In this document: positions 3,958 to 46,848 of the stretch, one piece after another
How the letters are laid out: every line of letters starts with the position of its first letter
Position numbering within the stretch: position 1 is the stretch's first letter
Assembly (NCBI GenBank): GCA_964429775.1
Contig: CAYSDJ010000008.1
Coordinates: 4,261-68,260 of the forward strand
Length of the DNA stretch: 64,000 bases
Reading direction: 5' to 3'
Origin: an uncultured Rhizobiaceae bacterium
GTDB lineage: Bacteria > Pseudomonadota > Alphaproteobacteria > UBA828
The notes under the pieces: model-generated
Database searches by the model: none
The model's input: the letters and a program-made list of their open reading frames with translations, nothing else
Told to the model about the DNA's origin: nothing
Position numbers and translations under genes: made by a program

Positions 3958-5301
3958 ATGGTGAATTCGGCCCGTGTTCTGGTTGCGGACGGAAACCTCA
4001 AAACGCTCAATCTCGTCAGCGAATGTTTACGCCGGCTTGGTTTGGTAAATTTGCTCGAAACCTCTGCTTCCAAGGCGATCAGCCGGGCACAAAATGAGCG
4101 CCCCGAAGTTATGCTTTTGGGGCTCGAATTCAATGACCGCAGCTGCGCGAGCATCATTTCCGACCTCAAGTCTTCCGACGAATCATGCGATATCCCGGTT
4201 CTTCTAATGGTCGGTGAAAATGGGGCGCCCGATTGGTCCAAGGAATTTGTCACCCAGTTTGACGAAGTGATCGAGTGGCCGTTCGGCGACGAGCAGGTTC
4301 AGGCGCACGTGACCGCCGCATTGCGTCTTGGCACCATGCGCTCGGAGCTCAACCGGAGAAACGAGACCTTGCGCTTTTTCGGCGCCGGCAGCGCCGACAA
4401 TTGGCATGCCGAGAAATCCGATAATCCGCCCCATATCCTTTTGGCGCGCGGCGATGGCGCCGGCGACGACGGCGTCGAAGAAGCCTTGAAGGGCTTTTCC
4501 CGCTTGGAAACGGAGCAGCTCGGCAGCAATGTTCTGGGAACGCTCAGCGGCTCCGATATCGAATTTGTCGTAATCTCGGAAAATGACGATTTTCAGGCGG
4601 CGCTCGATACCTGCGACGATATCCGGCGCAACCCCACCCTCTTCCACATGCCGATCCTGACGATATGCTCGGCCGATCCTGAGCATATCGCGCAGGCCTA
4701 CCGGCATGGTGCGACGGCGGCCTTTTCCCTGCCGCTCAATGGCGACGAATTGCGCGCCCGGGCAACGATGGGCGTTCGCTCGCATCGCCTGCGCGGTCAT
4801 ATGCTGAACGCTTATCGCGCCGGCAAAAATCATGCGATGAGCGACGGCACCACCGGGCTCTACAGCGCTGAATTTTTCCACCAGCATTTGCAGACCTTGG
4901 TGGCGGATGCCGAGCGCTGGGACAAATCGCTCTCTCTTAACGTGATTGCCGTGCCGGAAGTCAGCCATATCCGCAGTGAATATGGCGATAACGCAGCGGA
5001 TCATCTGTTGAAACAATTGAGCGGCATGATTTCGCGCCTGGTACGCGGTGAAGATTTGTGCGCCCGGCTCGACGACACAACTTTCTGCATCGCCTTGCCG
5101 GAAAGCCCGCTGGAAGCGGCAAGCCCGACCATGCAGCGCATGGCCGGCGTATTGGGTTTCACCGAATATTCCCTCCTTGAGATCGCCGCACCGGTGAATA
5201 TCCACCCGCGCATTGGCAGTGCCGAGTACAAATCAGGCGATTCGGTGGAAGACCTGATCGGGCGCGCCCTATCAACAGCATTGGCGGCCAACGCGGCCTA
5301 A
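3958..5301 (+). CDS. PleD/PopA-like REC-REC-GGDEF protein with degenerate receiver Asp and degenerate GGDEF (DDTTF); I-site RxxD retained
   Basis: Two CheY-like domains are followed by a GGDEF fold. The A-site reads RLDDTTF instead of GG[DE]EF. An RGED motif lies 5 aa upstream, like the I-site. The REC1 phospho-acceptor position reads LLGLEF (Gly in place of Asp). Confidence 0.7.
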   Translation: MVNSARVLVADGNLKTLNLVSECLRRLGLVNLLETSASKAISRAQNERPEVMLLGLEFNDRSCASIISDLKSSDESCDIPVLLMVGENGAPDWSKEFVTQFDEVIEWPFGDEQVQAHVTAALRLGTMRSELNRRNETLRFFGAGSADNWHAEKSDNPPHILLARGDGAGDDGVEEALKGFSRLETEQLGSNVLGTLSGSDIEFVVISENDDFQAALDTCDDIRRNPTLFHMPILTICSADPEHIAQAYRHGATAAFSLPLNGDELRARATMGVRSHRLRGHMLNAYRAGKNHAMSDGTTGLYSAEFFHQHLQTLVADAERWDKSLSLNVIAVPEVSHIRSEYGDNAADHLLKQLSGMISRLVRGEDLCARLDDTTFCIALPESPLEAASPTMQRMAGVLGFTEYSLLEIAAPVNIHPRIGSAEYKSGDSVEDLIGRALSTALAANAA

Positions 5302-5398
5302 CTTTGCTGTCCGCGTCCCTCTCCGGGCGCGGTCACAAATACGTTAGCGGCTAGCACGGGGCTCGCCCGCATAGTCGTTGGCGGCTATACTTTGCGCC

Positions 5399-6043
5399 AT
5401 GAAGGTTTTAATCGTATCGGACACGATTTGTCCCTGGTGCTTTGTTGGCAAGCGGCGCTTCGAACGCGCATTGGCCGAGCGCCCAGAAATTACCCCGGAT
5501 ATCGAATGGCGACCCTTCCAGCTCAATCCGCAAATGCCGGCGGCCGGGCTCGACCGCAAGACCTATATGCGGGCGAAATTCGGCAGCGATGAGCAGGCTG
5601 CGGAAATCTATCAGGCAATCGAGCAGGCCGGCGAAGCGGAAAAAATTCCGTTTGCCTTCGACGCCATCACACGCGTCCCCAATACCGTTGCCTCTCACCG
5701 GCTGATCAGTTGGTCGCTGAAGCTCGGCCGCCAGGACGCCGTGGTCGAAGGCCTATTTCGCTGTTATTTCGAGGACGGCAAGGATATCGGCGAGATCGAT
5801 GTTCTCGCCGCCGTCGCCGGCGAGGCCGGGCTGGATGAAGCCGAGGCGGCGGCCTATCTCGCCAGCGAAGAGGGTGTCGAGCAAACGCTCGCCGAAACCC
5901 GCGAGGCGCAACAACTCGGCATATCCGGCGTACCCTGCTTTATATTCGATGGCAAATACGCTGTTTCCGGCGCGCAGGGGCCGGAAGTATTTTCTCAGGT
6001 GTTCGACTTGGCGCTACAGCCCGACGAAGCAGCGAGCGGCTAA
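5399..6043 (+). CDS. DsbA-family thiol:disulfide oxidoreductase (FrnE/2-hydroxychromene-2-carboxylate isomerase-like)
   Basis: MKVLIVSDTICPWCFVGKRR gives a CPWC thioredoxin-fold motif at the N-terminus, followed by a DsbA-like helical insert. Confidence 0.75.
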   Translation: MKVLIVSDTICPWCFVGKRRFERALAERPEITPDIEWRPFQLNPQMPAAGLDRKTYMRAKFGSDEQAAEIYQAIEQAGEAEKIPFAFDAITRVPNTVASHRLISWSLKLGRQDAVVEGLFRCYFEDGKDIGEIDVLAAVAGEAGLDEAEAAAYLASEEGVEQTLAETREAQQLGISGVPCFIFDGKYAVSGAQGPEVFSQVFDLALQPDEAASG

Positions 6044-24525: not shown

Positions 24526-25867
24526 ATTCAAAGCGCGCACGGTCGGCTTCGTCATCGCAATATTTGTTTCAATGTTGGTGGTTGCTCCGCCGGTAGAGGC
24601 AAAAGGATTATCGCTTATCCGCGATACGGAAGTTGAAAATACCATCCGCGCCTATGCGGCGCCACTATTCACAGCCGCCGGATTGGATGCGGCTGCGGTA
24701 AAAGTGCACATTGTCAATGATTCACGCCTCAATGCCTTCGTTGCCGGCGGCTTGAATTTGTTCGTCAATACCGGCCTGTTGATGGCGAGCGATAATCCGG
24801 ACCAGATTATCGGCGTTTTCGCGCATGAGACCGGCCATATTGCCGGCGGCCATTTGGCGCGCACCCGTGAAGCCGTCGAAAACGCCACAGCGGAGGCCAT
24901 TTTGGCCTATATCCTGGGCGCCGCCGCGATTGTGGCCGGTGGCGGCGAAGCCGGCGGCGCCATCATCGGCAGCGGCCAGGCGATAGCGCAACAGTCGCTC
25001 ATCCGCTACAGCCGGGCGCAGGAGCAGGCGGCGGACCAGGCGGCGGTACGCTACCTTGAAAGCGTCGGGCGCTCGGCTGAAGGCATGCTTGAGGTATTTC
25101 ATAAATTGGAGGACCAGGAATTGCTCGTACCGGAGCGCCAGGACCCCTATGTGCGCTCGCACCCGCTTACCCGCGACCGGATTCGATTCGTGCAAAATTT
25201 CATCGAGTCGTCGACCTACTCGACCACCAAATCGAGTGCCGACGAGCTTATGGCGCACAACCGGATGGTGGCCAAACTATATTCATTTCTGAACTCACCG
25301 GGCCGGACCCTTCGGACCTACCGCACCAGCGATACCAGCCTGCCGGCCAGGTATGCGCGCGCCATCGCCTATTTCAAAATCCCCGATCTCGAAAAGGCAA
25401 TTGGCGAAATCGACTCACTCCTCAGGGAATATCCCAACGACCCGTGGTTCCACGAGGTAAAGGGGCAAATATTGTTCGAAAATGGCCATATTGCGCTCTC
25501 GGTTGCGCCCTATGAGCGCGCCGTCGCATTGCGCCCCGACGAGGCTCTCCTCAGGCTCGGACTGGCGCGCGCCCAAATCGAGATAAACGATCCGTTATTC
25601 AACAAAAAAGCGATAGAAAACCTGATCATCGCGGTGCGCTCGGAACCCAATCATGCGCAACACTGGCATTTTCTCGGCATCGCTTATGGCCGTGACAAGC
25701 AACTGGCGCAATCTTCCCTCGCCCTGGCCGAGGCATCGATTTTGCGCGGCGAGTTTGTTGAGGCAAAATATCATGCCGAGAAGGCTAAACGCGGGTTGGA
25801 AAATGGCTCTCCGGCCTATTTGCGCGCCGAGGATATCAGCATGGCAGCAAACCACGGCAACCGATAA
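24518..25867 (+). CDS. M48-family metalloprotease with C-terminal TPR repeats (BepA/YfgC-like)
   Basis: Signal peptide and HETGH zinc motif with a downstream Glu. The C-terminal TPR region resembles BepA. The putative TTG start at 24518 is preceded by AAGGGA. Confidence 0.75.
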   Translation: MTIFKARTVGFVIAIFVSMLVVAPPVEAKGLSLIRDTEVENTIRAYAAPLFTAAGLDAAAVKVHIVNDSRLNAFVAGGLNLFVNTGLLMASDNPDQIIGVFAHETGHIAGGHLARTREAVENATAEAILAYILGAAAIVAGGGEAGGAIIGSGQAIAQQSLIRYSRAQEQAADQAAVRYLESVGRSAEGMLEVFHKLEDQELLVPERQDPYVRSHPLTRDRIRFVQNFIESSTYSTTKSSADELMAHNRMVAKLYSFLNSPGRTLRTYRTSDTSLPARYARAIAYFKIPDLEKAIGEIDSLLREYPNDPWFHEVKGQILFENGHIALSVAPYERAVALRPDEALLRLGLARAQIEINDPLFNKKAIENLIIAVRSEPNHAQHWHFLGIAYGRDKQLAQSSLALAEASILRGEFVEAKYHAEKAKRGLENGSPAYLRAEDISMAANHGNR

Positions 25868-26252: not shown

Positions 26253-27254
26253 CTAAATCAGACCGCCGAGCGGCGACGACGGGTCGGCATATTGTTTTTT
26301 CGCCATTCGCCCGGCCAAATAGGCCATTCTGCCCGCTTCCACCGCGAGACGCATGGCATGGGCCATGGCGATCGGGTCCTTGGCCTCCGCGATGGCTGTG
26401 TTCATCAACACGCCGTCACAGCCAAGCTCCATGGCAATCGCCGCATCCGAAGCCGTGCCCACCCCGGCATCAACAAGAACCGGGACCGAGCTGTTTTCGA
26501 TGATAATGCGCAGATTCACGGGATTTTGCACGCCAAGGCCGGAGCCGATCGGCGCCGCCAATGGCATGATCGAGACAGCGCCCAAATCTTCCAGCTTTTT
26601 CGCCATTATCGGGTCGTCGCTGCAATAGACCATGACATCGAAACCCTCTTTGACCAGCAATTCGGTGGCGCTCAGGGTTTCGATCATGTTCGGGTAAAGG
26701 GTGGTTTGGTCGCCCAAAACCTCCAATTTCACCAGTTTCCAGCCCCCCGCCTCACGCGCCAGGCGGAGCGTGCGCACCGCGTCTTCGGCGGTAAAACAGC
26801 CGGCGGTATTGGGCAGATAGGTATATTTCTTGGGGTCGAGATAATCGACCAGCATCGGCTCATCCGGGTTGCTCACATTGACGCGTCGGACGGCAACCGT
26901 GACGATTTCCGCCCCCGAGGCCTCGGCGGCACGGGCGGTTTCGGGGAAATCGCGGTATTTTCCGGTGCCGATAATGAGACGGGAAGTGAATTTCCGCCCG
27001 GCCACGCTCCAGCCCTGCCCCTCGCCGTCAAGCACCGGCGCGGCGCTTGCGGCGCTGCCGCCACCGATGAAATGGACGATCTCCAAGCGGTCCCCGTCCT
27101 CCACCGGCGTGCCGTCATAGGCGCCCTTCGGCACAATCTCGAGATTGCGCTCCACGGCGATCTTGCGCGGGTCGAAGCCGAGGCTCCGCAACATGGAATT
27201 GACCGTCAGGGGACCGTCAAAATTACGCGCTTCGCCATTAATCTGAATCTGCAT
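26253..27254 (-). CDS. thiG: ThiS-ThiG fusion (sulfur carrier + thiazole synthase)
   Basis: The N-terminal 66 aa form a ThiS-like domain ending ...VHFIGGG. It continues in frame into ThiG (LIIGTGKY..., Schiff-base Lys region). ATG at 27254. Confidence 0.8.
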
Positions 27255-27480
27255 TTCGCCGCTTTTATCCTTCCACCGGCGGCGGGCCGCGCCCGGCCGC
27301 CATATTGCAAACCAATCTGAATTAGAGTATGGCCACGTCCCTCGGCATTTCAACCGTTTGGGCGATCAAGCGGCGAAATTGCATAATAAACGCCCGAACC
27401 GCAGATTGAACCGAGACAATCGCTGAGCACGCGCCCGCTCTCTCTTGGTGCTAATAAGTTTGAATTGGTTTAGTATGGTT
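27255..27480 (-). promoter_or_regulatory. thiS-thiG leader; possible TPP riboswitch (unconfirmed)
   Basis: The 225-nt leader lies upstream of a thiamine biosynthesis gene. The minus strand contains CTTGATCGCCC...TGCCGAGGGA, which loosely resembles the 3' half of the THI element. No clean CUGAGA box was seen. Confidence 0.25.
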
Positions 27481-27933: not shown

Positions 27934-28431
27934 ATGGCGGCGGAACTGCCTTTAGAAAAACGCGAAGACGGGCCGCGCAGAGCCGATTTCGACCTGATTC
28001 GCGAATTGGCCGCGCTGTTGGACGAAACCGGTTTGAGCGAGATTGAAATCGGCGAAGGGCCGGAACGCATCCGCGTGGCGCGGACCATGGCCGGCGCCGC
28101 TGTCGCTGCACCGGCGCCTCAGGCCGCGCCCGCAATCGAGCCGCCGAGCGGCGACGCGGGCGAAGCGCCACAGGCGGTGAATATCGATTCAAACCATCCC
28201 GGTGCGGTGATTTCCCCCCTTGTCGGCGTTGCCTTCCACGCCCCGGAGCCTGGCGCCGAGCCGTTCGTCAAGGTCGGCGATTCGGTCAGCGAGGGACAAA
28301 CCCTGTTTATCGTCGAGGCGATGAAGACGATGAACCCGATCAAAGCGCCGCGCGGCGGCCGAATCGCCAAAATATTGGTCGAAAATGGCACGCCGGTGGA
28401 ATATGGCGAAGTTTTGCTGGTGCTCGAGTAA
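27934..28431 (+). CDS. accB: acetyl-CoA carboxylase biotin carboxyl carrier protein
   Basis: C-terminal biotinyl domain with the EAMKTMN biotin-Lys motif. Confidence 0.9.
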   Translation: MAAELPLEKREDGPRRADFDLIRELAALLDETGLSEIEIGEGPERIRVARTMAGAAVAAPAPQAAPAIEPPSGDAGEAPQAVNIDSNHPGAVISPLVGVAFHAPEPGAEPFVKVGDSVSEGQTLFIVEAMKTMNPIKAPRGGRIAKILVENGTPVEYGEVLLVLE

Positions 28432-28466
28432 TCGGTGCGATTCTCTGATATCGGCGGTCCCACACA

Positions 28467-29807
28467 ATGTTCGATAAAGTTCTGATAGCCAATCGCGGCG
28501 AGATTGCGGTGCGTATCAATAGCGCCTGCCGCGAATTGGGCATTAAGACCGTGTCGGTTCATTCGACCGCGGATGCCGATGCCATGCATGCGCGTCTCTC
28601 CGATGAATCGGTCTGTATCGGCCCGGCGACAGTGCGCGATTCCTACCTCAACATCCCCTCTATCATCGCCGCCGCCGAGATCACCAATGCCAACGCCATC
28701 CACCCCGGCTATGGCTTTCTCTCGGAAAACGCCAATTTTGCCAGCATCGTCGAGGAGCACGGCTTTACCTTCATCGGCCCAACCCCGGAGCATATCAGCC
28801 TGATGGGCGACAAGGTACGGGCCAAGGAGGCGATGGAAAGTCTGGGTGTGCCGGTCGTGCCCGGCTCGCCCGGCACCCTGCACGATATTTCGGAATTTCA
28901 CGCCATTGCCGAGAAAATCGGCTATCCGGTTCTGGTCAAAGCGGTCTCCGGCGGTGGCGGCAGAGGCATGAAGCGCGTCTATTCGGCCGAGGACATGGCG
29001 GAAGCCGTATCGATGGCGCGGGCCGAGGCACAGGCCGCCTTCAATGACGGCTCGCTCTATCTCGAAAAGCTGATCGATACGCCGCGCCACGTCGAGGTGC
29101 AGGTTTTGGCCGACCAACATGGCGCCGCGGTACATTTGGGCGAGCGCGATTGCTCGCTGCAGCGGCGCCACCAGAAAATGGTCGAGGAAGCGCCCTCCTC
29201 CGCTCTCAATGCCGCCGAGCGCGAACGCATCGGTTCTCAAGTGGTGAGCGCGGTGTCCGAGATCGGCTATCGCGGCGTCGGCACGATGGAATTTCTTTAT
29301 GAGGCGGGCGAATTCTATTTCATTGAAATGAACACCCGTATCCAGGTCGAGCATCCGGTGACCGAAATGATCACCGGCATCGATCTCGTGCGCGAGCAAA
29401 TCCGCGTCGCCGCCGGCGCACCGCTTGGCTATGGCCAGGAAGAGATCAAATTTAACGGCCACGCCATCGAATGCCGCGTCAATGCCGAGGATCCGGTCAA
29501 TTTCCAGCCCTCGCCTGGCCGCATCTCCGGCTATCACCCGCCGGGCGGGCTCGGCGTGCGTGTCGATTCAGCGCTCTATCAGGATTATTCGGTGCCGCCC
29601 TATTATGACAGCCTGCTGGCCAAGGTCATCGTGCACGGCTCAAACCGCAACGAATGCCTGATGCGTCTACGCCGGGCGCTTGAGGAATATGTCATCACCG
29701 GTGTTGAGACCACGATCCCATTCCATCTCAAACTGATCGCCAATGCCGATTTCGCCAACGGCGCCTATGACATTCATTGGCTGGAGCGATTTATCGAAAA
29801 CAGCTGA
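28467..29807 (+). CDS. accC: acetyl-CoA carboxylase biotin carboxylase
   Basis: [17 protein letters not shown]... ATP-grasp biotin carboxylase, 446 aa. Confidence 0.95.
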
Positions 29808-30454: not shown

Positions 30455-30798
30455 ACCGGATGCTCAAGCGCCGAGAGGCCGGGCGTCGAGGCGAACATCC
30501 AACCACTGAACAGAAGCTTGACCGGCTCGCCGCGCTGTTTCTCACGGATTTCCAGAAAGGCGGCGCTTTCCGGTGGTTCCTCGGGCGGCTTTTTGTGACA
30601 CGCCTGGGCAGTAATCTCGAGCGTTCCAAAGCTGACCGGCACGCCGAGCTCGGCGCTAAACTCGGATATCCGCGCGGTTACCTTATCGAGCCCCTGTAGC
30701 ACCACGGCCGTGCGTTCCTGCGCGGATACGCTCATCGGGCTCAACAGCAGGCCGATTGCCAGCACGGCAACGGCGCCTAGCGCACCTTGACTATTCAT
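30394..30798 (-). CDS. DUF2155-like secreted protein
   Basis: ATG at 30798 overlaps the amidase stop (ATGA). Signal peptide present. The conserved block [18 protein letters not shown] is consistent with DUF2155. Confidence 0.55.
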
Positions 30799-32198
30799 CC
30801 GAACGGCCCTGGTGGCTTTTTGTCCACCCACGGGCAGGCCTCCTCGAAGGCCGCGGCGGCGCGGAAAATATCCGTCTCCGAATTGATCCGTCCGACCATC
30901 TGAAATCCGACCGGCAGGCCCGCTTCGGTAAACCCGGCCGGAATCGATGCGGCGGGCTGGCCGGTGGCGTTGAAAGGATAGGTATAATAAACCCAGGATA
31001 CGGCATTGCGGTCCTCCCACCCGGGCGGCACGTTCAGGCCGACACCGAAGGCGGCGACCGGCAATACCGGCGACAGCAGCAGGTCATAATCGTCAAAAAA
31101 CTCACGCACCTGTTCGCGAAAGGCGTAGCGGGCAAAGAGTAGCGTGAAATAATCCTCGATCGAATTATCAAGCGCGCCGGACAGCAGTTCGACCACGGCG
31201 GGATCCAATTGATCGGCCGAGTCGGACAAAATCGCTTTTAGTTTGGTTCCGACCCCGCCATAAAATTCCGCCGCCCAGATATCGAGCGGCTCGTCGCCCA
31301 GCGGCGCCTCGACCAAATCGACCGTGCAGCCCAGTTGCTCGAAGGTCCGCGCCGCCTGTTCAGTGATTTGCAAAACCTCCGGATCGCTGCGGGCATAGCC
31401 GAAGGTTGGGCTCCATGCGATGCGCATGCCTTTGACCGATTGGCCGCACGCAGCGAGATAATCCGGCACCGGCCCGGCGACGGCAAAAGGATCGCGCCGG
31501 TCATGGCCGGAAATGACGCCAAGCAGCAGTGCAGCGTCGCGCACGGTGCGGGCGAGCGGGCCAACATGGGCAAGTGTCGGCGTCGCCGGCACCGGAAAAA
31601 GCGGCACGCGCGAGAATTGCGCCTTGATACCAAACAGGCCGCACAGCGAAGACGGAATCCGAACCGAGCCGCCGCCGTCGGTGCCGAGCGCAAACGGCGT
31701 GAGCCCGGCGGCAACGCTCGCCCCCGCGCCAGCGCTCGAACCACCCGGCGTCTTGGCCACATTCCAGGGATTGCGCGTGATGCCGGTGAGCGGACTGTCG
31801 CCGGTGCCCTTGCAGCCGAATTCACTGGTCGTTGTTTTGCCGATGATGCAGGCACCGGCGGCGCGTGCGCGTTCGACCGAGGGCGCATCGACGGGGCCAA
31901 TATTTTCGGCGAACGGTTTGGAGCCGAAGGTCCAGGGCACATCCGCCATGGAGATCAGGTCCTTGACCGATAGGGGCAGGCCATGCAGGGCGCCCAGCTC
32001 CGCCCCCGCCATCACTGCCTGCTCCGCTTTACGTGCGGCTTCAAGGGCAATTTCCGGCGTGAGGGTGACGAAACAATTGAGCGCCGGCTCGAGCGCCTCC
32101 TGTCGCGCGAGGGTATCCGCGACCAGTTCAACAGGGGAAATTTCCTTGGCCGCGATCATGCGCGTGAGATCAAGAGCGGTGGCGTAAGCGAAACTCAT
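30795..32198 (-). CDS. amidase signature (AS) family amidase
   Basis: GGSSAGAGASVAAGL... Ser-cisSer-Lys amidase-signature core, 467 aa. Confidence 0.85.
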   Translation of the reverse strand: MSFAYATALDLTRMIAAKEISPVELVADTLARQEALEPALNCFVTLTPEIALEAARKAEQAVMAGAELGALHGLPLSVKDLISMADVPWTFGSKPFAENIGPVDAPSVERARAAGACIIGKTTTSEFGCKGTGDSPLTGITRNPWNVAKTPGGSSAGAGASVAAGLTPFALGTDGGGSVRIPSSLCGLFGIKAQFSRVPLFPVPATPTLAHVGPLARTVRDAALLLGVISGHDRRDPFAVAGPVPDYLAACGQSVKGMRIAWSPTFGYARSDPEVLQITEQAARTFEQLGCTVDLVEAPLGDEPLDIWAAEFYGGVGTKLKAILSDSADQLDPAVVELLSGALDNSIEDYFTLLFARYAFREQVREFFDDYDLLLSPVLPVAAFGVGLNVPPGWEDRNAVSWVYYTYPFNATGQPAASIPAGFTEAGLPVGFQMVGRINSETDIFRAAAAFEEACPWVDKKPPGPFG

Positions 32199-32211
32199 GG
32201 CGGCGGTTTCC

Positions 32212-33279
32212 TCAAATCACGCCGGAGCCACGGTCGAGCGCTTCCGGTGCCGTGAACACGCAGGCGGAGAAACGCGCTTCGAGATCGGCCCGGTCGAGCC
32301 CCTTGCCAATGACGACGATACGGGTTTCAGGCTCGCCGCGTGGCCAGCTATCGGCATAGGTGGGCGGGCTGAATGTCGCTTGAACGCCCTGCAGAATAAC
32401 CGGCTGATCGACATTATCGAACTGCACCAGCCCTTTGACACGGTACAAATCCTCACCATGCATCTCGGTCAGCTCGACGAAAAAGCGCAGCACCAGGTTC
32501 CAATCCATAACGCGCTTTTCCTGCAGACAAACGGCTGTGACTTCCGGCGTGTGCTCATGATCATGCGCGTGGCCGGCCTCCTCCTCGGTCGAGCCAAGCC
32601 AATCGCCGATCGCATCATCACGATTTTTGGGATCGAAGATGTCGAGGTCGACGATCTTGTCGACCGGCAAGGCACCGTGCGAGGTGACCTCCTTGCGCGA
32701 ATAGGGGTTGAGCGCGCTTACCACGGCGACGGTGCGCTCGAATGCCGCATCGTCGACCATGTCGCGCTTGTTGAAAATTATCTTATCGGCAATGGCGATT
32801 TGCTTTTGCGCCTCGATCGAATTGGCAATCTCGATTTCGACATGCTTGAGGTCGACCACGGTGAGAACCGCATCGAGCTTAAATGTGAGATCGAGCTTTA
32901 TGTCGGTATAGAGCAGTTTGGCCAAGGGCGACGGGTCTGCCATGCCGGTGGTTTCGATGATGATCTTATCGAACTCGATCTGCGGCTCGGCCAGTCCGAC
33001 TTTGCGCATGAAGAGCTTGTTGAGGCCGTCCAAGAGGTCGCCCTGTGCGGCGCAACAGATACAGCCATTGGTGAGCTCAAGCATATCCTCGGTGGCGCGC
33101 GCGATCAGATCGCCGTCGATACCGATTTCGCCGAACTCATTGACGATGACGGCAATTTTTCCGGCGTCCGGGTCGCTCAGCACATGATTGATCAGGGTGG
33201 TTTTGCCCGCACCCAAAAAGCCGCTCAGCAATGTGATCGGAATGCGTTGATCGCCGTCGCGCGAATCAAGCCGAGGCAT
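32212..33279 (-). CDS. COG0523 (CobW/Nha3/ZigA-type) GTPase metallochaperone with His-rich stretch
   Basis: Walker A GFLGAGKTT, a CICC metal-binding motif (GCICCA), and a His-rich linker (EEEAGHAHDHEHTPE). Confidence 0.85.
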   Translation of the reverse strand: MPRLDSRDGDQRIPITLLSGFLGAGKTTLINHVLSDPDAGKIAVIVNEFGEIGIDGDLIARATEDMLELTNGCICCAAQGDLLDGLNKLFMRKVGLAEPQIEFDKIIIETTGMADPSPLAKLLYTDIKLDLTFKLDAVLTVVDLKHVEIEIANSIEAQKQIAIADKIIFNKRDMVDDAAFERTVAVVSALNPYSRKEVTSHGALPVDKIVDLDIFDPKNRDDAIGDWLGSTEEEAGHAHDHEHTPEVTAVCLQEKRVMDWNLVLRFFVELTEMHGEDLYRVKGLVQFDNVDQPVILQGVQATFSPPTYADSWPRGEPETRIVVIGKGLDRADLEARFSACVFTAPEALDRGSGVI

Positions 33280-33290
33280 GTGCCGTCAGA

Positions 33291-33995
33291 TCAGCCGTCC
33301 ACCATCGCCCAGGCGCGAACCGGCGAGCCGCTGCCGTCACCTATTTTGAGCGGCGGACCAAAAAACTGAAACTCACCTTTGCCGATGAGCTGCTCTAGGT
33401 TGATCAGCCATTCATAGTGGGTGATGCCCCGGTCGCGGCAGACGCGATGGTTGGGAAAGAGATTATCCGACGGCTTGTCGGTCGACGGCCCTTCGACGCC
33501 ATGCAGTTTGGACCCTCTGTCCGCCAGCCAATTGGTCGCATCGGCGGTAATGCCGGCATTGCTCCACACCACCTTGACGTCGGGGTAATGGCGCTCATGC
33601 AAACCGGTGCACATCAGAACAATATGGCCATCGATTTTGACACCGGCCTTTTCCTCTGCCGCTTCTATGTCGGAGATATCGATATCGCCGAGATCCGGGA
33701 TATGGCGCATATCGAGGCATACCGATTTTCCCATAAACATATCGAGCGGCATATTGTCGACCGTGTCGCCATTGGGGTTGGTGTGATAGAAGGCATCCAC
33801 ATGGGTGCCGATATGATCGACCATACCCAAGAATGTGGTGGCGAACGAAAGCCGGTCGTTGGGCGTTCCGAGTTCGAAATCCTTGAGGGTTTTTTCGTGC
33901 GTGTAATGCGGAACGATGACGGGCCGCTGGAACAGTTTATGCGCCGGCATATTGTCGGTCATCTTTAATGTCAGATCGATCATCTGTTGGCCCAT
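33291..33995 (-). CDS. cyclase-family protein (kynurenine formamidase-like metal hydrolase)
   Basis: HxGTHxDxPxH-type motif (DHIGTHVDAFYH), typical of the putative-cyclase fold. Confidence 0.7.
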   Translation of the reverse strand: MGQQMIDLTLKMTDNMPAHKLFQRPVIVPHYTHEKTLKDFELGTPNDRLSFATTFLGMVDHIGTHVDAFYHTNPNGDTVDNMPLDMFMGKSVCLDMRHIPDLGDIDISDIEAAEEKAGVKIDGHIVLMCTGLHERHYPDVKVVWSNAGITADATNWLADRGSKLHGVEGPSTDKPSDNLFPNHRVCRDRGITHYEWLINLEQLIGKGEFQFFGPPLKIGDGSGSPVRAWAMVDG

Positions 33996-40847: not shown

Positions 40848-41989
40848 GCGGCACACGAAAAACAACCGCGCGTCTCGACAATAGCGAAATCCTCGCCGCT
40901 GCCGGGCATGATTTGCGCCAACCGATGCACTCGCTCAATCTGGTTTTGGGCGCTCTCGCCGGACGTGCCGAAGATTCCGAAACCGCCGCACTGGTGAACA
41001 GCGCACAGATTTCAGCCGACGGCGTTACCAGTGTGCTGGAAACGCTGCTCGGAATTGCCACCATGGACGCCGGCGGCGCGGCGCCGGAAGTTTCCCAATT
41101 CGCCGTGCAGGACCTGCTCCAGCATCTCAGCGAACAATTTACCCAGCGCGCCGCCAATAAGGGTCTTCAGCTGCGCATTATGCCCTGCACCCTCAGCATC
41201 AGGAGCGACCGCGTGTTGTTGCAGCGGATATTGGAGGCGCTCCTCTCCAATGCCATACGCCATAGCGAAAGCGGGCATATCCTGCTCGGCTGCCGCCGAA
41301 CAAAGCGTGCGCTGCGTATCGGTGTGTTGGACCAGGGGCCGGGCCTGAACGAAGAAATGGCGGCGCGATTTTCCACCGTCAACAGCCAAGATGGCGCGTT
41401 TTCGAAATCAAGCTGGCGCGGCTATGCCTTGGGCCTCTCGATCGCGCAATATATTTGCGCCGCACTTGGCCATGACATGACCGTGGTGTCGCGCCAAGGA
41501 AAAGGTGCCGCTATTTGGCTGAAAGTGGATTTGGTCGGGGCGCAGACCAAAAGCACCGCAGAAGCCGTTTCCCCTCCCCCCCTCGCCCCGGAAGAGAGCG
41601 ATGCCGCCATCGCTATCATCGAGGACGACCCGGATATTCTATTTGCAACAACGCAATTCCTAACCGGTTGGGGATATCGCGTCTGCGGCGGCAAAACAGC
41701 AGCGGCGACAATTCAGGATATCGAGACGAATGGCGGCGGCGCCTGCCCTGATCTGGTGCTGTCGGATTTCAATCTGCCCGAGGGGCAAACGGCGGTGGAC
41801 GCGATGGCCGAACTGAACCATCACTTCGACACGGAAATCCCGGCCATCATTATCACCGGTGACCCGTCCGCGCCGGGTATCGCCGAGGCACGGGAGCTCA
41901 ATTACGAAATTCTGAACAAGCCGCTGCGCGCCGCCAAGCTGCGCGCGCTGGTTCGCTACACCCTGGCGGAGAGACCGCAAACATCGTGA
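40844..41989 (+). CDS. cytoplasmic hybrid histidine kinase (HisKA-HATPase-REC) with no sensor domain
   Basis: H-box AAGHDLRQPMHS at residue ~22 and N/G boxes (LSNAIRHS, GYALGLSIAQ). C-terminal receiver with LVLSDFNLPEGQ and no TM segment. Confidence 0.8.
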   Translation: MSGTRKTTARLDNSEILAAAGHDLRQPMHSLNLVLGALAGRAEDSETAALVNSAQISADGVTSVLETLLGIATMDAGGAAPEVSQFAVQDLLQHLSEQFTQRAANKGLQLRIMPCTLSIRSDRVLLQRILEALLSNAIRHSESGHILLGCRRTKRALRIGVLDQGPGLNEEMAARFSTVNSQDGAFSKSSWRGYALGLSIAQYICAALGHDMTVVSRQGKGAAIWLKVDLVGAQTKSTAEAVSPPPLAPEESDAAIAIIEDDPDILFATTQFLTGWGYRVCGGKTAAATIQDIETNGGGACPDLVLSDFNLPEGQTAVDAMAELNHHFDTEIPAIIITGDPSAPGIAEARELNYEILNKPLRAAKLRALVRYTLAERPQTS

Positions 41990-42030
41990 GGCGCGCCGGC
42001 ATCTGCCGAACGCGCCTCACATTTCATGGT

Positions 42031-42411
42031 TTACCAGTGCCAAACCTGGTCATGCGCATCGCATATGGCGGGAATATTCGAGCGCGATACCTGCTTGACG
42101 CCATCAACCAGATTTGCGTCCGCCAAGCCGCGCTCGGCCAAATCCTCGCTGGCGATATACACCTCTACGCCTTTGCCGACCAGGCCGCCGATATCGCGCG
42201 CCATGTTCGGCGGTTGGGTTTGTTTCCAGGCGCCAAATGAGAGCCCGGATGCGTCCTGGCCGTTGATCGCGTAATTGACGGCATTGCCGCGCAACAAAAC
42301 ATTGAGATCAGCACCCGCACCTTTCATCGCGTGGCTGATCCAGACGATGGTATCGTCTTGCTCCTCTTGCGTGGCGCGGTAGGCCGATTCGATAACCTGC
42401 AATACTTTCAT
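42031..42411 (-). CDS. DsrH/TusB-like sulfur-relay family protein
   Basis: Small protein, third gene of the DsrEFH-like triad, with a TusB-like LLRGNAV...W C-terminus. Confidence 0.45.
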   Translation of the reverse strand: MKVLQVIESAYRATQEEQDDTIVWISHAMKGAGADLNVLLRGNAVNYAINGQDASGLSFGAWKQTQPPNMARDIGGLVGKGVEVYIASEDLAERGLADANLVDGVKQVSRSNIPAICDAHDQVWHW

Positions 42412-42420
42412 GATCCCCTC

Positions 42421-42834
42421 CTAGCGCGTGCCGATGGTGAGCGTGTTGTCGGACTCACCAGCCATGGACCAAAGATCCCCCGGCGTGCCGCGCCTGACAC
42501 CATCGATGGCATCGCCGACGCCGCGTTCATCGACACAGAGACCGCAATTCACCCAATCCAGTTTACCGCCATTTTTCTTGGCCTCGGTGATCAGCGCCGC
42601 GACCCAATCCTTGGGCAAGGGATGGTTTTCCTCTTCCACGTCATGTCCGTGCACCGCATTGGGATGCGCCGCCTGCTGGGCAAATGGCACACATACGGCC
42701 CCCTCATAAGCGAATACGTTTATGTCATAGCCGCGCGCCGCGGCGATATTCATCAGACGCAGCGCCGTGGTGTTGCGCGCGCTTTCATAGGGCGCGTCCA
42801 TCAGCGCAAATGTCAGTGTTTTCTTGTCAGCCAT
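42421..42834 (-). CDS. DsrE/TusD-like sulfur-relay protein with conserved Cys (NCGLC) and His-containing insertion
   Basis: MADKK...APYES N-terminal block. A Cys lies in the position of the TusD/DsrE active-site Cys (WVNCGLCVDERGV). Confidence 0.55.
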   Translation of the reverse strand: MADKKTLTFALMDAPYESARNTTALRLMNIAAARGYDINVFAYEGAVCVPFAQQAAHPNAVHGHDVEEENHPLPKDWVAALITEAKKNGGKLDWVNCGLCVDERGVGDAIDGVRRGTPGDLWSMAGESDNTLTIGTR

Positions 42835-42844
42835 TATCCCCTCC

Positions 42845-43171
42845 CTAATGCCACATGGTTTTGCAGCCGTCGGCCAAACCGTCGACGACAACATCCAGCG
42901 GCGATGATTTCACCCCGACCTGCAATTGCGCCGCATCAATGGCGCGTTCGCGCAGCGAAAAATCATCCGCCAACACTTCGATCCCCGCTTTTATGGCGCT
43001 TTCCAGCGCATCGGAACTGGCGCCTTGACGCGCCGGCAACACACCGTTCTGAACGAGAAACAAGGTGACCTCATTGCCTTCGTTCGCGAGGCCCCGGGCG
43101 AGGTCGAAATAATTGCCAACATCAGCTGATTCATAAGGGTCGCGAGATTCGATTAAGAGATATTTGCTCAT
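42845..43171 (-). CDS. DsrE/DsrF-family protein (no active-site Cys; DsrF/TusC-like)
   Basis: MSKYLLIESRDPYES...VTLFLVQNGV has the DsrE/F fold pattern. It is the first gene of the triad. Confidence 0.55.
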   Translation of the reverse strand: MSKYLLIESRDPYESADVGNYFDLARGLANEGNEVTLFLVQNGVLPARQGASSDALESAIKAGIEVLADDFSLRERAIDAAQLQVGVKSSPLDVVVDGLADGCKTMWH

Positions 43172-43321
43172 CTATTGTCCTCCCCATTTAAGTCGCCCAA
43201 CAATGCTAGGTCCGCTTGCGCCCGTCGGCCAATAAACTAATCGTGTGCGAACGTTGGCGCGACCGGGTAGCATGGCGAAAATTCATACAGCCATGCGAGT
43301 TTCAACAAGAAGGGAGACAAA

Positions 43322-43912
43322 ATGAGTTCCGACGCAGCGGATGCAAAAACAGCGCTTAGAGTGAGAGCGCTTGAATCGTTGCTGCTCGAAAAGGGGCTGA
43401 TCGAGACGGACGCGATCGACGAGCTGGTCGATATGTTCGAAAACCGGCTTGGCCCCTGGAACGGCGCCAAGGTCGTCGCCCGGGCATGGACCGACCCCGC
43501 CTTTAAGGAGCGGCTGTTGCAGGACGGCACGGCGGCGCTGGCGGATATGGGTTTCGACACCATCCAGGGCGAAGAAATGGTGATCGTCGAGAACACCCCA
43601 GCTATCCACAATGTTATCGTCTGCACGCTCTGTTCCTGCTTCCCCTGGGCGGTCCTCGGCCTGCCGCCGGTATGGTATAAATCGGCGCCCTACCGGGCCG
43701 AGGCGGCGCGCGACCCGCGTGGTGTGCTGCGCGAATTCGGCACCGAAATAGACGGCGAGACCGAAGTACGCGTGTGGGACAGCAATGCCGAGCTACGCTA
43801 CATGGTGTTGCCCGAGCGGCCGGCGGGAACCGACGATATGGACGCAGCGGCGCTGGCCGAGCTGGTCACACGCGATTCGATGATCGGTGTCAGCAAGGTG
43901 GCGCCGCCATGA
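43322..43912 (+). CDS. nitrile hydratase alpha subunit-like protein (Co-type claw motif VCTLCSC)
   Basis: Near-collinear with Rhodococcus NHase alpha. The [10 protein letters not shown] metal-binding claw lies at nt 43622..43639. An RBS AGAAGGGAG precedes the ATG. Confidence 0.9.
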
Positions 43913-43937
43913 GCGCGCGCCTGAGAGGAGACCTGAG

Positions 43938-44249
43938 ATGAACAGCATTCACGATATGGGCGGCATGCACGGCCTCGGACCGCTTGATCTTTCAGACGAT
44001 GATATCGTCTTTCATGCCGCCTGGGAGGGCCGCGTCATGGCGCTGGCCCGCGCCATGATGGCGGGCAAGCACTTCAATCTCGATGAATACCGTCACGCCA
44101 TGGAGCGCATCGACCCGGCCCGCTACCTGCAACTCAGCTATTATGAGAAATGGCTGGAAGGCACGCTCACGATGCTGATGGAGAAGGGCGTTATCACGCA
44201 GCTGGAGTTCGATGCGCATTTAAACAAATTGACAGAGGCGGATTCGTGA
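43938..44249 (+). CDS. nitrile hydratase beta subunit, N-terminal-half protein (split beta)
   Basis: MNSIHDMGGMHGLGP...FHAAWEGRVMA matches the NHase beta N-domain. It ends at the domain linker. Confidence 0.8.
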   Translation: MNSIHDMGGMHGLGPLDLSDDDIVFHAAWEGRVMALARAMMAGKHFNLDEYRHAMERIDPARYLQLSYYEKWLEGTLTMLMEKGVITQLEFDAHLNKLTEADS

Positions 44250-44599
44250 TGCCGGTGGTCAATCTCGAATTGGTCAAGAGCCTCTACAAAACCCCTGGCG
44301 CCGCCCGCTTGCCGGTCGATGTGGCGCCGCGCTTCAAGGCCGGCGATTCGATCGTCGCGCGCAATATCAACCCGCCCGGTCACACCCGCCTGCCGCGCTA
44401 TATCCGCGACAAGAAAGGTGTTGTCGAACACGATCTCGGCGTCTTCCACCTACCCGATTCACGCGCCGCCGGCAGCGGCGATAACGCGCAGCACATGTAC
44501 ACCGTGCGCTTCGAAGCACGCGAAGTCTGGGGCGACGAAGCGCCGGCCAATGACAGCCTGCGGATTACACTGTGGGACGACTATATGAACCCGGCCTGA
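44249..44599 (+). CDS. nitrile hydratase beta subunit, C-terminal-half protein (split beta)
   Basis: The ATG overlaps the previous stop (TGATG). FKAGDSIVARNINPPGHTRLPRYIRDKKG...YTVRFEAREVWG matches the NHase beta C-domain. Confidence 0.8.
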   Translation: MPVVNLELVKSLYKTPGAARLPVDVAPRFKAGDSIVARNINPPGHTRLPRYIRDKKGVVEHDLGVFHLPDSRAAGSGDNAQHMYTVRFEAREVWGDEAPANDSLRITLWDDYMNPA

Positions 44600-44621
44600 G
44601 CGGCAAATAAGAGAAACAGCG

Positions 44622-45344
44622 ATGCGAAAAATCCTCGCCGTGCCGAACCTCACCATGCCCGAGCAACGTGCCGGCGCCACCCTGCCGCGCGACAGCGACG
44701 ATGTGGTTTTCTCCGAGGCATGGCAGGCACATGCCTTTGCCGTGATTATGTCGCTCTATCAGGATGGTCATTATAATTGGGCCGAATGGGACGATTATCT
44801 CGGCCATTGCATCCAGGCACCCGGGCATTTCGCCAAAGCCCCGGGCGAAGACACCGAAGGCGGCGAGGAAGCGATTCGTACTGGAAGCAATCGAAGCCCG
44901 TTCCTTACCGCCTGTGAGCGTGACGGCGCGAAATATTATCATTTTTGGCTCGCCGCGACGGAACAATTGCTCGACGCCAAAGGCCTGGTGAGCACCGCCG
45001 AATTGGATGCGCGTGTTGCCGCCATCGACAAGGCCGAACAGTCCGGGCCGCGCTTTAGCGCCGGAGGGCGCGTTCTGGTGCGAGACATCAAGCGCGAGGG
45101 CCACACCCATCTGCCGCTCTATCTGCGCGGCAAGACCGGCGTGGTGGAAAGCGACCGCGGCTTGTTCGTCTTTCCCGAAGGTGCCGGGCATAATCATGAT
45201 CACGATCATAAGCATGACGGTGCCGACACCCTGCAGCATGTCTTTTGCGTCCGCTTTTCAGCAACGGATATTTGGGGTGAATCAGCTTCCGCCACACATG
45301 ATTTGAATTTCAATCTCTGGGACTATCAGTTGGAGGCAGCATGA
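44622..45344 (+). CDS. full-length NHase beta-like paralogue / accessory (activator)-like protein with His-rich insertion (GHNHDHDHKHDG)
   Basis: The N-terminus (LPRDSDDVVFSEAWQAHAFAV) resembles NHase activator/accessory proteins. The C-terminus (GGRVLVRDIKREGHTHLPLYLRGKTG...FCVRFSATDIWG) resembles the beta C-domain. Confidence 0.7.
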   Translation: MRKILAVPNLTMPEQRAGATLPRDSDDVVFSEAWQAHAFAVIMSLYQDGHYNWAEWDDYLGHCIQAPGHFAKAPGEDTEGGEEAIRTGSNRSPFLTACERDGAKYYHFWLAATEQLLDAKGLVSTAELDARVAAIDKAEQSGPRFSAGGRVLVRDIKREGHTHLPLYLRGKTGVVESDRGLFVFPEGAGHNHDHDHKHDGADTLQHVFCVRFSATDIWGESASATHDLNFNLWDYQLEAA

Positions 45345-45943
45345 TGGAAAAATCTGCTGCAGGTGAGCTGGCACGCCTGATTCGTGAGGATGACGGCGCT
45401 CTCTATGCCGACGATGCCGCCGCCCGCGCCATCGCCATCGTCATGAACCTGTTTCACCAGGAGCATTACGCCTGGCCGCAATGGGTCGACAAGTTCAGCG
45501 CCGAAATCGATGCGCCGGGGCATTTCCGGCATTCGCCGGATAGCGCCGAACACGCCGAGGCCGTGCTGAGCGGTGACGCCAAGCGCATCAATCGCAATTA
45601 CGCCGAGCTGTGGCTCGCCGCTTGTGAAAAGCTATTGCAAGAAAAAGGACTAACGACGCCAGCTGAACTTAGCGCCAAGCTGGCAACGCTACAGCCTAAA
45701 CAACCGCCCGCCCATGCCTTCGCGCTGGGCACGCGCGTTATTGTGCGCGATATCGAACCGTCTGAATCAGATCATTTGCCGCTATTCATACGCGGCAAGG
45801 CCGGCAGCGTGGAACGGCAATTGGGCGAGGCTAAATATAATGTTCGCTTCACGGCGCAAGAGATTTGGGGCACCGACGCACCCGGGCGGGACAGTTTAAA
45901 CTTCACCATCGCGCACCAATATCTGTCGCCCGAAAACTCCTAG
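45341..45943 (+). CDS. second full-length NHase beta-like paralogue / accessory-like protein
   Basis: The ATG overlaps the previous stop (ATGA). Features are DDGALYADDAAARAIAIV... and a beta C-domain-like GTRVIVRDIEPSESDHLPLFIRGKAG...YNVRFTAQEIWG. Confidence 0.7.
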   Translation: MMEKSAAGELARLIREDDGALYADDAAARAIAIVMNLFHQEHYAWPQWVDKFSAEIDAPGHFRHSPDSAEHAEAVLSGDAKRINRNYAELWLAACEKLLQEKGLTTPAELSAKLATLQPKQPPAHAFALGTRVIVRDIEPSESDHLPLFIRGKAGSVERQLGEAKYNVRFTAQEIWGTDAPGRDSLNFTIAHQYLSPENS

Positions 45944-46848
45944 AGCCAGGCGGCGCCGCGCATGCCGCTTTCGGGCCCGTGTGCCGCTTTGACCAAGCGC
46001 GTGGCGGTTGGTTTCGTGCCGGTATGGCGCCCCCAAAGCTCGGGAACCTGCTCATAGAGGCCGCTGATTTCCGACAGGCCGCCGCCGAGAACAATGATAT
46101 CGGGGTCGAAAAAATTGATCGCGCTCGCCAGTGCGCGGGCCAGACGCTCGGCATATTGCGAGATCGCCTGTTTGGCCGCCGCGTCGTTCTCCTCGGCGAG
46201 CCGCGAGATTTCCTTGGCTTTGGCCTCGCTTCCGCTCAACGCCTGATAATCGCGCGACAAGGCGGCGCCGTTGAGCCAGGTTTCGATACATCCTATCTGG
46301 CCGCAGCCGCACATTGTTTCCGCGCCATCCTCCGGCGTGCGCCACGGCAAGGGATTGTGGCCCCATTCGCCGGCAATGGCGTTGGCGCCGGTGACGATTT
46401 GCCCATTGACGACAATGGCGCCGCCGACACCGGTGCCGAGGATGACGCCAAACACCAGCTTGGCGCCGGCAGCGGAACCATCCGTCGCCTCCGAGAGAGC
46501 AAAACAATTGGCGTCATTGCCGATATGGACCGGACGCTCAAACAGGCGCTCGAGATCGGGGCGGAACGGCTTGTCGCGAAGCCACGGCAAATTGGCCACC
46601 ATGACGGGCTCGCCCGAACGATTGACCACGCCCGGCATGCTGATGCCGATCCTGTTGGCCCGCCCGGCATGTTCCTCGAGATGCGAGACGGTATCGGAAA
46701 TATTCTCGACGGTGCCGTTATAATCGCGCGATATTTCGCTGCGAAAGCGCGCCCGTTCCCTGCCCTCACCGTCGAGGATCATGGCTGCTATTTTTGTTCC
46801 GCCGATATCGATTCCGATACGCATATCAGCGCCGCCGGTTTCATTCAT
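45940..46848 (-). CDS. ROK-family sugar kinase (N-acetylglucosamine kinase-like)
   Basis: MRIGIDIGGTKI and the CxCGxxGC zinc motif (CGCGQIGCIE). An alternative start lies at 46824. Confidence 0.8.
   Translation of the reverse strand: MNETGGADMRIGIDIGGTKIAAMILDGEGRERARFRSEISRDYNGTVENISDTVSHLEEHAGRANRIGISMPGVVNRSGEPVMVANLPWLRDKPFRPDLERLFERPVHIGNDANCFALSEATDGSAAGAKLVFGVILGTGVGGAIVVNGQIVTGANAIAGEWGHNPLPWRTPEDGAETMCGCGQIGCIETWLNGAALSRDYQALSGSEAKAKEISRLAEENDAAAKQAISQYAERLARALASAINFFDPDIIVLGGGLSEISGLYEQVPELWGRHTGTKPTATRLVKAAHGPESGMRGAAWL

Follow-up and report, generated by a model that had tools for sequence, protein, structure and literature searches.

A predicted cobalt-type nitrile hydratase operon with a split beta subunit and two long beta-like probable accessory proteins in uncultured marine Alphaproteobacteria

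We analysed a 64,000-nucleotide stretch of DNA from an uncultured Rhizobiaceae bacterium (assembly GCA_964429775.1, contig CAYSDJ010000008.1, positions 4,261 to 68,260), referred to below as the window. Five adjacent genes on its forward strand are predicted to encode a cobalt-type nitrile hydratase (NHase) whose beta subunit is divided between two polypeptides, followed by two long proteins that each resemble a whole beta subunit. We call the latter P240 (open reading frame (ORF) 44622-45344) and P200 (ORF 45341-45943). A triad of small DsrE-like genes diverges from this operon on the opposite strand. Loci of relatives carry numbers (L011, L012 and so on). The five genes of the operon are:

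43322..43912, + strand: alpha, predicted alpha subunit of a cobalt-type NHase; 196 amino acids (aa), Pfam NHase_alpha E 1.4e-87, claw VCTLCSC
43938..44249, + strand: beta-N, N-terminal half of the beta subunit; 103 aa, NHase_beta_N E 3.4e-35
44249..44599, + strand: beta-C, C-terminal half of the beta subunit; 116 aa, NHase_beta_C E 7.2e-30
44622..45344, + strand: P240, putative long accessory protein; 240 aa, matches to NHase_beta_N, NHase_beta_C and TIGR03889
45341..45943, + strand: P200, putative second long accessory paralogue; 200 aa, matches to NHase_beta_N, NHase_beta_C and TIGR03889

The genes are closely packed. Gaps of 25 nucleotides (nt) and 22 nt separate alpha from beta-N and beta-C from P240, and the other junctions are overlaps: beta-N and beta-C share a TGATG stop/start with a +1 change of frame, and P240 and P200 share ATGA. 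The sequence GAGAGGAG lies 6 nt 5' of the beta-N ATG. Independent JGI, ENA and Logan assemblies of marine samples contain the exact P240 protein on 18 contigs, and the genes are called identically on all of them. An earlier reading of this DNA from its letters (the sequence-only reading) had allowed that the two beta-like genes might be a duplication created by assembly error. Because the same P240 and the same gene calls recur on 18 independently assembled contigs, an assembly artefact is excluded for the locus. The nearest named genome is a Rhodospirillaceae metagenome-assembled genome (MAG) from Saanich Inlet (L011), in which P240 is 92% identical. The ratio of non-synonymous to synonymous substitution rates (dN/dS) against L011 was 0.114 for alpha, 0.109 for beta-N, 0.108 for beta-C, 0.121 for P240 and 0.128 for P200. 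Values of 0.11-0.13 in all five genes argue that none of them is decaying.

A nitrile hydratase with a divided beta subunit

The alpha protein passes TIGR01323, the curated NHase alpha model, with 303.2 bits (cut-off 249.85) and fails TIGR03887, the model for the gamma subunit of thiocyanate hydrolase (SCNase), with 174.5 bits (cut-off 291.45). Its top matches in the PDB are cobalt-type alpha chains (E 1e-90 to 1e-69). The claw that the sequence-only reading had recognised as cobalt-type is present as VCTLCSC; the threonine in the C-T-L-C-S-C claw marks the cobalt type. Joined, beta-N and beta-C make 219 aa that align from 1 to 219 with residues 1-219 of the cobalt-type beta subunit of Pseudomonas putida (3QXE_B, E 3.6e-56), beta-N covering residues 1-103 and beta-C 104-219. 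Every match of the joined protein at E<=0.01 was an NHase beta chain, and none was an SCNase chain. The residues that hold the claw are distributed over the two halves: beta-N retains the MNxIHDxGG arm, Arg52 (DEYRH) and the Tyr-Tyr motif (SYYEKW), and beta-C retains the GHTR arginine equivalent to Arg157. In a joint alignment Arg52, Tyr68 and Arg157 are all present across the halves, in the numbering of the P. thermophila enzyme, which the titles of PDB entries for beta-R52 and beta-R157 mutants corroborate. Of the 32 relatives with a beta C-terminal domain, 31 retain the GHxR motif; it was unmatched in L025. Together, the alpha model, the end-to-end beta alignment and the retained claw-holding residues argue that the enzyme is an ordinary cobalt-type NHase with its beta subunit cut in the linker. 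The five-gene operon is predicted to convert nitrile and water to amide, as cobalt-type NHases do with Co(III) bound by Cys-sulfinate and Cys-sulfenate ligands.

Among solved enzymes, the NHase of P. putida NRRL-18668 with its accessory P14K (3QXE) provides the best match for the joined beta, and its alpha chain ranks second for the window's alpha (E 1.5e-82). The gene order, alpha, beta, accessory, is also the same. Thiocyanate hydrolase (ScnA/B/C, PDB 2DD4) belongs to the same superfamily and likewise consists of three polypeptides with a split beta. The sequence-only reading had raised the possibility of a thiocyanate-converting enzyme; however, alpha fails the SCNase gamma model and the beta halves are much closer to NHase beta, which places the locus outside the thiocyanate hydrolase family.

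The alignment of the joined halves over residues 1-219 of 3QXE_B places the cut in the inter-domain linker, where the sequence-only reading had put it. A scan of one genome per species yielded 33 related loci (L011-L043), all from marine alphaproteobacterial MAGs. Beta is encoded by two ORFs in 29 of them and by a single ORF in two (L012 and L016); of the remaining two, one was undeterminable at a contig edge and one (L040) has no beta. Junctions differ among the split loci, from a 1-nt overlap through 4-nt overlaps to a 12-nt gap, and independent gene calls agree. Two halves in adjacent frames with a one-base overlap, together with an unsplit beta in two related lineages, might be taken to indicate a frameshift, whether from a sequencing or assembly error or in a decaying pseudogene. 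However, gene calls are identical on the 18 independently assembled contigs, the split recurs in 29 of 33 divergent loci with differing junctions, dN/dS is about 0.11 for both halves, and further lineages (L179-L181) also have a split beta. We consider a frameshift exceedingly improbable.

The unsplit-beta lineage comprising L012 and L094-L097 shows full synteny with the window, the fused-beta lineages are nested among split ones in a rough neighbour-joining tree of P240, and beta is also split in L178, the basal relative. The simplest reading would be an old split followed by at least two re-fusions. Because beta has been fused again in two nested lineages, the split looks roughly neutral. 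Other uncultured lineages combine a split beta with short accessories, of 130 aa in L179 and L180 and 175 aa in L181. The sequence-only reading was right about the split itself, which is less distinctive than that reading implied, since beta toggles between split and fused forms within the clade and is split in lineages with short accessories as well. Free interconversion of the two forms lowers the significance usually given to 'three-subunit' NHases.

Several observations describe the halves further. Against TIGR03888, the beta model (cut-off 152.2), each half scores 116-118 bits, and neither is a single-polypeptide beta of ~220-230 aa. Stand-alone beta-N orthologues of ~103 aa fall into 40 or more clusters, and a word-indexed search with beta-N for ToyK/ToyL-like relatives returned marine relatives only. 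A tandem pair of beta-N genes precedes a single beta-C in L019 (6979-7637), L021 (7250-7986), L022 (7280-7920) and L041 (7286-8019), the two copies being 54-58% and 63-66% identical to the window's beta-N. The split beta and 130-aa accessory of L179 lie at 4087-5739. In L181 (4068-5892) the 175-aa accessory that accompanies the split beta ends in a His-rich tail (SDHHHHRHSHDHD), and the locus adjoins genes for an FmdA_AmdA amidase and an ANTAR regulator.

ToyJKL of Streptomyces rimosus and ScNHase (AnhD/AnhE/AnhA) of Streptomyces canus are cobalt-type enzymes that also have separate beta-N and beta-C polypeptides. Both are described without an activator gene, and in ScNHase the beta-N protein AnhD is itself the swapping chaperone. 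Both come from Actinobacteria, ToyJKL from an antibiotic biosynthesis cluster, whereas the window's operon lies on a proteobacterial chromosome and has two dedicated long accessory-type genes after beta. The gene order of ScNHase is beta-N, beta-C, alpha; that of the window is alpha, beta-N, beta-C.

Two long accessory-type proteins

Both P240 and P200 match NHase_beta_N, NHase_beta_C and the accessory model TIGR03889, which bears out an earlier description of them as beta-like with accessory-like N-termini. P240 passes TIGR03889 at its N-terminus (56.9 bits, cut-off 46) and fails the beta model TIGR03888 (99.8 bits, cut-off 152.2). P200 falls just below the accessory cut-off with 41.1 bits and matches NHase_beta_C with E 6e-11. 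P240 aligns to residues 17-218 of 3QXE_B. It combines an N-domain of accessory type with an acidic insert, in which Cys98 is invariant, and a beta-like C-terminal domain with a His-rich loop (GHNHDHDHKHD, residues 188-198) that expands the loop preceding the QHV motif. In both proteins the N-terminal arm of beta is replaced by the accessory-type motif LPRD..VF.E.WQA.AF, and the inter-domain linker, where beta is cut, is ~24 residues shorter. The two claw-contacting arginines of beta are replaced as well. In the joint alignment, the position of Arg52 holds Asp57 in P240 and Val in P200 and the short accessories, and the position of Arg157 (GHTR) holds His163 in P240 (GHTH) and His in most P200 orthologues. 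Asp57 and His163 are invariant in 17 P240 orthologues.

P200 is by sequence a paralogue of P240 (34% identical, E 4e-35), with the same two-domain plan and no His-rich loop. The P200 proteins of the window, L011 and L012 have lost ~17-24 residues, comprising a C-domain loop and the QHV motif; they read SDH instead of GH(A/T)H, and purifying selection persists (dN/dS 0.128). In a rough neighbour-joining tree the P240 C-domains cluster with those of P200 and apart from every beta C-domain sampled. This grouping led us to reject a recent origin of the P240 C-domain by copying of beta-C from the same operon. An AlphaFold model of P240 built from 17 sequences had a predicted local distance difference test score (pLDDT) of 63.7 and was confident in the C-terminal domain alone. 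The top matches in a fold search with this model were NHase beta chains only, and the SCNase small subunit was a weak match to the C-domain.

The small cobalt-type activators (NhlE, NhhG and P14K; TIGR03889) resemble P240 and P200 in their N-terminal motif, in their place after the structural genes and in the loss of Arg52. Unlike these proteins, which are ~10-17 kDa and have no beta C-terminal domain, P240 and P200 both carry NHase_beta_C and a shortened inter-domain linker. P14K, for example, is ~14 kDa, whereas P240 has 240 aa, the beta C-terminal domain and the His-rich loop; the window further differs from the P. putida system in its two-polypeptide beta and in having P200 besides. By size and domain content, P240 and P200 would fall outside the classical small-activator family in the strict sense. 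In outgroup loci (Limnohabitans and soil MAGs) beta is unsplit and the accessories, 73-147 aa long, lack the C-domain; the N-terminal motif LPRD..PVF.EPWQA.AFA is common to P240 and these short proteins.

P240 is present in all 33 related loci. Orthologues of P200, 200-221 aa long, occur in 16 of the 33, which form one subclade. P240 has 93 homologues, and an exhaustive search of 1.84 billion representatives returned 8 proteins at E<=1e-30, essentially the P240 cluster, P200-like clusters and fragments. The long accessory form is rare and phylogenetically narrow. In L178 a gene for CbtB (2234-2443; PF09489, putative cobalt transporter subunit) lies 3' of the P200-like gene. In L040 (1538-3667) alpha is immediately followed by P240-like and P200-like genes, and no canonical beta was found on the 7.7-kb contig; the closest relative of L040 is L178, which has beta-N and beta-C.

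A 2020 review gives six NHase gene organisations, and neither it nor the S. canus paper describes alpha, beta-N and beta-C together with two long beta-like accessories. The suggestion that this gene set is unlike known arrangements is upheld by the literature examined, which describes no such NHase operon and in which the characterised three-subunit enzymes have no activator. In its working, the locus would correspond to a P. putida-type cobalt NHase with its activator.

We think it probable that P240 and P200 are long maturation factors for the loading of cobalt into alpha, because P240 passes the accessory model, fails the beta model and lacks both catalytic arginines. The metallochaperone role entertained in the sequence-only reading fits the same data. 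In the literature on NhlE, NhhG, P14K and AnhD, cobalt-type activators are beta homologues that act by self-subunit swapping or as metallochaperones, the small accessory proteins binding alpha in a complex required for cobalt insertion and subunit swapping, and maturation of the P. putida NRRL-18668 enzyme is reported to proceed by self-subunit swapping with its beta-related accessory. In the mechanism we propose, the VCTLCSC claw of alpha would bind cobalt, and the oxidised claw cysteines would be held by parts of both beta halves, namely the N-terminal arm, Arg52 and Tyr-Tyr motif from beta-N and the second arginine from beta-C. P240 and P200, as beta-derived accessory ('activator') proteins that have kept the beta C-terminal domain, would bind nascent alpha where beta normally sits, promoting the insertion of cobalt and the oxidation of cysteines. 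Asp57 and His163 of P240 would sit where the arginines contact the claw, and the flexible His-rich loop could serve as a metal antenna that helps to gather and insert cobalt. Matured alpha would then be released to the split beta, via self-subunit swapping or by direct transfer. Two observations in relatives favour this reading: the CbtB gene after the cluster in L178, a link to cobalt, and the His-rich tail on the short accessory of L181, which is comparable to the P240 loop.

Several points weigh against this role. For the whole clade, the assignment of P240 and P200 to maturation is drawn from sequence. The P240 model is moderately confident, and the placement of its residues relative to alpha comes from alignment alone. 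Not every P240 orthologue has the His-rich loop: the highest count of histidines in a 14-aa window runs from 2 to 8 among them. Such variation would be the pattern expected of an optional metal-collecting appendage. Because the known split-beta enzymes, ToyJKL and ScNHase, mature without an activator, the need for two of them here is not obvious. In two lineages the operon and the DsrE-like triad share a divergent intergenic region, and they may be co-regulated there. Finally, L040 has alpha and the two long proteins without a canonical beta, which could mean that these proteins are subunits in their own right.

The arrangement in L040 is the sole observation that favours such an alternative, in which P240, P200 or both would be structural beta subunits that form isoenzymes with alpha, with a different active-site environment and possibly another substrate or reaction. 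The idea also accommodates the full two-domain beta architecture with beta chains as top fold matches, a constraint on P240 and P200 equal to that on alpha and beta, and the reported catalytic competence of ToyJ alpha alone. However, both cysteine-holding arginines are lost and the beta N-terminal arm has given way to an accessory-type N-terminus, P240 reaches the cut-off of the accessory model but not that of the beta model, and at least 31 of the 33 loci, as well as L178, have a canonical beta. We regard alternative subunits as unlikely. It is quite unlikely, too, that Asp and His at the arginine sites would endow P240 and P200, as alternative beta-type subunits, with a second type of active site for another class of substrate or another reaction.

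A role in maturation would bear on how cobalt-type NHases acquire their metal and oxidised cysteines, which is still argued between self-subunit swapping and direct transfer from a metallochaperone. Small activators reportedly express poorly and are difficult to produce in large amounts, and the alpha-activator complex could be easier to capture with a full-length beta-like activator. An activator with the whole beta architecture also resembles a stage in evolution between beta and the small activators. In practical terms, the family is narrow and is seen solely in uncultured marine bacteria.

The divergent DsrE-like genes

The sequence-only reading had correctly picked out the divergent triad (42031-43171, minus strand) and the NCGLC motif of one member. 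The features on this side of the operon are:

43172..43321, no strand: divergent intergenic region of 150 bp that separates the first DsrE-like gene from alpha
42845..43171, - strand: DsrE-like gene 1; 108 aa, Pfam DsrE 25.5 bits
42421..42834, - strand: DsrE-like gene 2; 137 aa, Pfam DsrE 42.2 bits, invariant NCGLCVDERG
42031..42411, - strand: DsrE/DsrH-like gene 3; 126 aa, Pfam DsrE 21.7 bits and DsrH 20.4 bits, both below cut-off

The gathering cut-off of Pfam DsrE is 22.7 bits. Gene 2 encodes 137 aa after correction of its start (the longest ORF has 157 aa), the alignment supporting a start at MADKK. Its protein has invariant cysteines in the alignment and 5989 homologues, of which the best 120 are all at least 75% identical. 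We compiled 84 triad loci, namely L090-L093 from look-ups of the exact proteins and 80 further metagenome loci (L098-L177) from marine and soil samples; in 18 of the 80 the contig extends 1.5 kb or more to either side. Throughout these loci the 137-aa protein is 68-86% identical to that of the window and NCGLCVDERG is invariant. Gene order and spacing are constant in every triad locus, as far as the contigs reach. No NHase was found in L090-L093 and no NHase alpha in any of the 80 metagenome loci. Nor does the triad have a conserved neighbour family, the best family occurring in 7 of 45 loci. Among NHase loci, the triad accompanies the operon only in the population of the window and in the L012/L094-L097 lineage, which is syntenic with it. 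Of the 32 other related loci 31 lack the triad, among them the closest relative L011, where a histidine kinase gene directly adjoins alpha instead.

Like DsrEFH and TusBCD, the triad consists of three tandem small DsrE-fold genes in fixed order, one of them with a conserved cysteine motif. Unlike them, it stays below all curated TusB/C/D cut-offs: gene 3 falls far short of the TusB and TusC models, the best scores are 20.5 (cut-off 49.2) and 18.1 (cut-off 94.15), and the other two proteins gave no match. No dsr, tusA/tusE or mnmA partner genes were found in the window. Searches of PDB sequences with the three proteins gave no meaningful match to solved structures. The triad reaches the cut-off of no curated family and looks like a housekeeping module that is as yet uncharacterised. 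Because it is absent from L011 and most relatives and common elsewhere without an NHase, we judge it to be an independent, widely conserved stand-alone three-gene module and not part of the NHase system. Its adjacency to the operon is best explained by lineage-specific gene order.

The sequence-only reading had allowed that the triad might be coupled to the enzyme by a sulfur relay, in which a thiocyanate or organosulfur-nitrile enzyme would hand its sulfur product to the divergent DsrEFH-like carrier. SCNase is also a three-polypeptide, split-beta relative of NHase, in both the window and the L012/L094-L097 lineage the triad and alpha lie on opposite strands 150 bp apart, and the 137-aa protein has its invariant cysteines. 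However, alpha passes the NHase model and fails that for SCNase gamma, and the joined beta has no SCNase match; the triad is missing from L011 and most other related loci, belongs to a family of 5989 homologues compared with 93 for P240, and has neither an alpha nor a conserved neighbour in the metagenome loci, in addition to failing every TusB/C/D cut-off. The gene-neighbourhood data largely refute the sulfur-relay model, and we hold a thiocyanate or organosulfur enzyme so coupled to be very improbable. The sequence-only reading had itself proposed that a lack of linkage in relatives would mark the association as coincidental, and in relatives the genes are mostly unlinked. Short of a sulfur relay, the operon of the window's lineage could be co-regulated with the triad from a shared divergent promoter region; the 150-bp region (43172-43321) contained no sigma-70-like site and no Rfam family.

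Substrate and chromosomal surroundings

A separate issue, compatible with a maturation role for P240 and P200, is what the enzyme hydrates. One candidate is a ToyJKL-like hydratase for 7-cyano-7-deazapurines (toyocamycin/preQ0-type) that would act in marine salvage or detoxification. The split beta resembles that of ToyJKL, and in 11 loci of subclade A relatives alpha is immediately preceded, on its own strand, by a gene for adenosine deaminase (TIGR01430, 256.8 bits, cut-off 216.55), which suggests a purine-like or deazapurine nitrile as the substrate of the deaminase-linked subclade. However, the window's own subclade has no deaminase beside the operon, and a Pfam survey of the window found no genes for QueC/D/E or GTP cyclohydrolase I; ToyJKL, by contrast, lies within a deazapurine (toy) cluster and has no activator gene, where the window has two accessory-type genes after beta. 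The closest solved relative is the P. putida enzyme for aliphatic and aromatic nitriles, and the likeness to ToyJKL is set by description, not by sequence. A deazapurine substrate for the window's enzyme therefore seems rather improbable to us.

The deaminase gene lies ~1 kb upstream of alpha in L024-L026, L031, L032, L035, L037-L039, L042 and L043 (also L088 and L089), and these loci belong to the subclade without P200. Flanking the deaminase gene are genes for a luciferase-like monooxygenase, a CoA-transferase, a Zn-dependent alcohol dehydrogenase and hydantoinase A/B. In the window, an amidase-signature enzyme is encoded at 30795-32198 on the minus strand (Pfam Amidase E 2.5e-99), 11 kb from the NHase. 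As a pathway partner that would hydrolyse the amide it was not adopted, given this distance and the unrelated genes that intervene.

A scan of 41900-46100 for promoters and terminators gave nothing exceeding chance. The Rfam scan of the whole window found one tRNA only and nothing near the operon, hence no cobalt or other riboswitch. A search of a plasmid collection with the 4-kb locus returned zero matches. The window is chromosomal, because it contains the housekeeping genes for GlnE, RF-2, PBP1A, RNase E, ThiG and RecJ. Four of its ORFs have no Pfam match at E<=1e-5: 28119-29537 (minus strand, 472 aa), 32197-33369 (plus strand, 390 aa), 33417-33968 (plus strand, 183 aa) and 24722-25258 (minus strand, 178 aa). 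A single ORF at 26253-27353 on the minus strand joins a ThiS domain to ThiG, the thiazole synthase.

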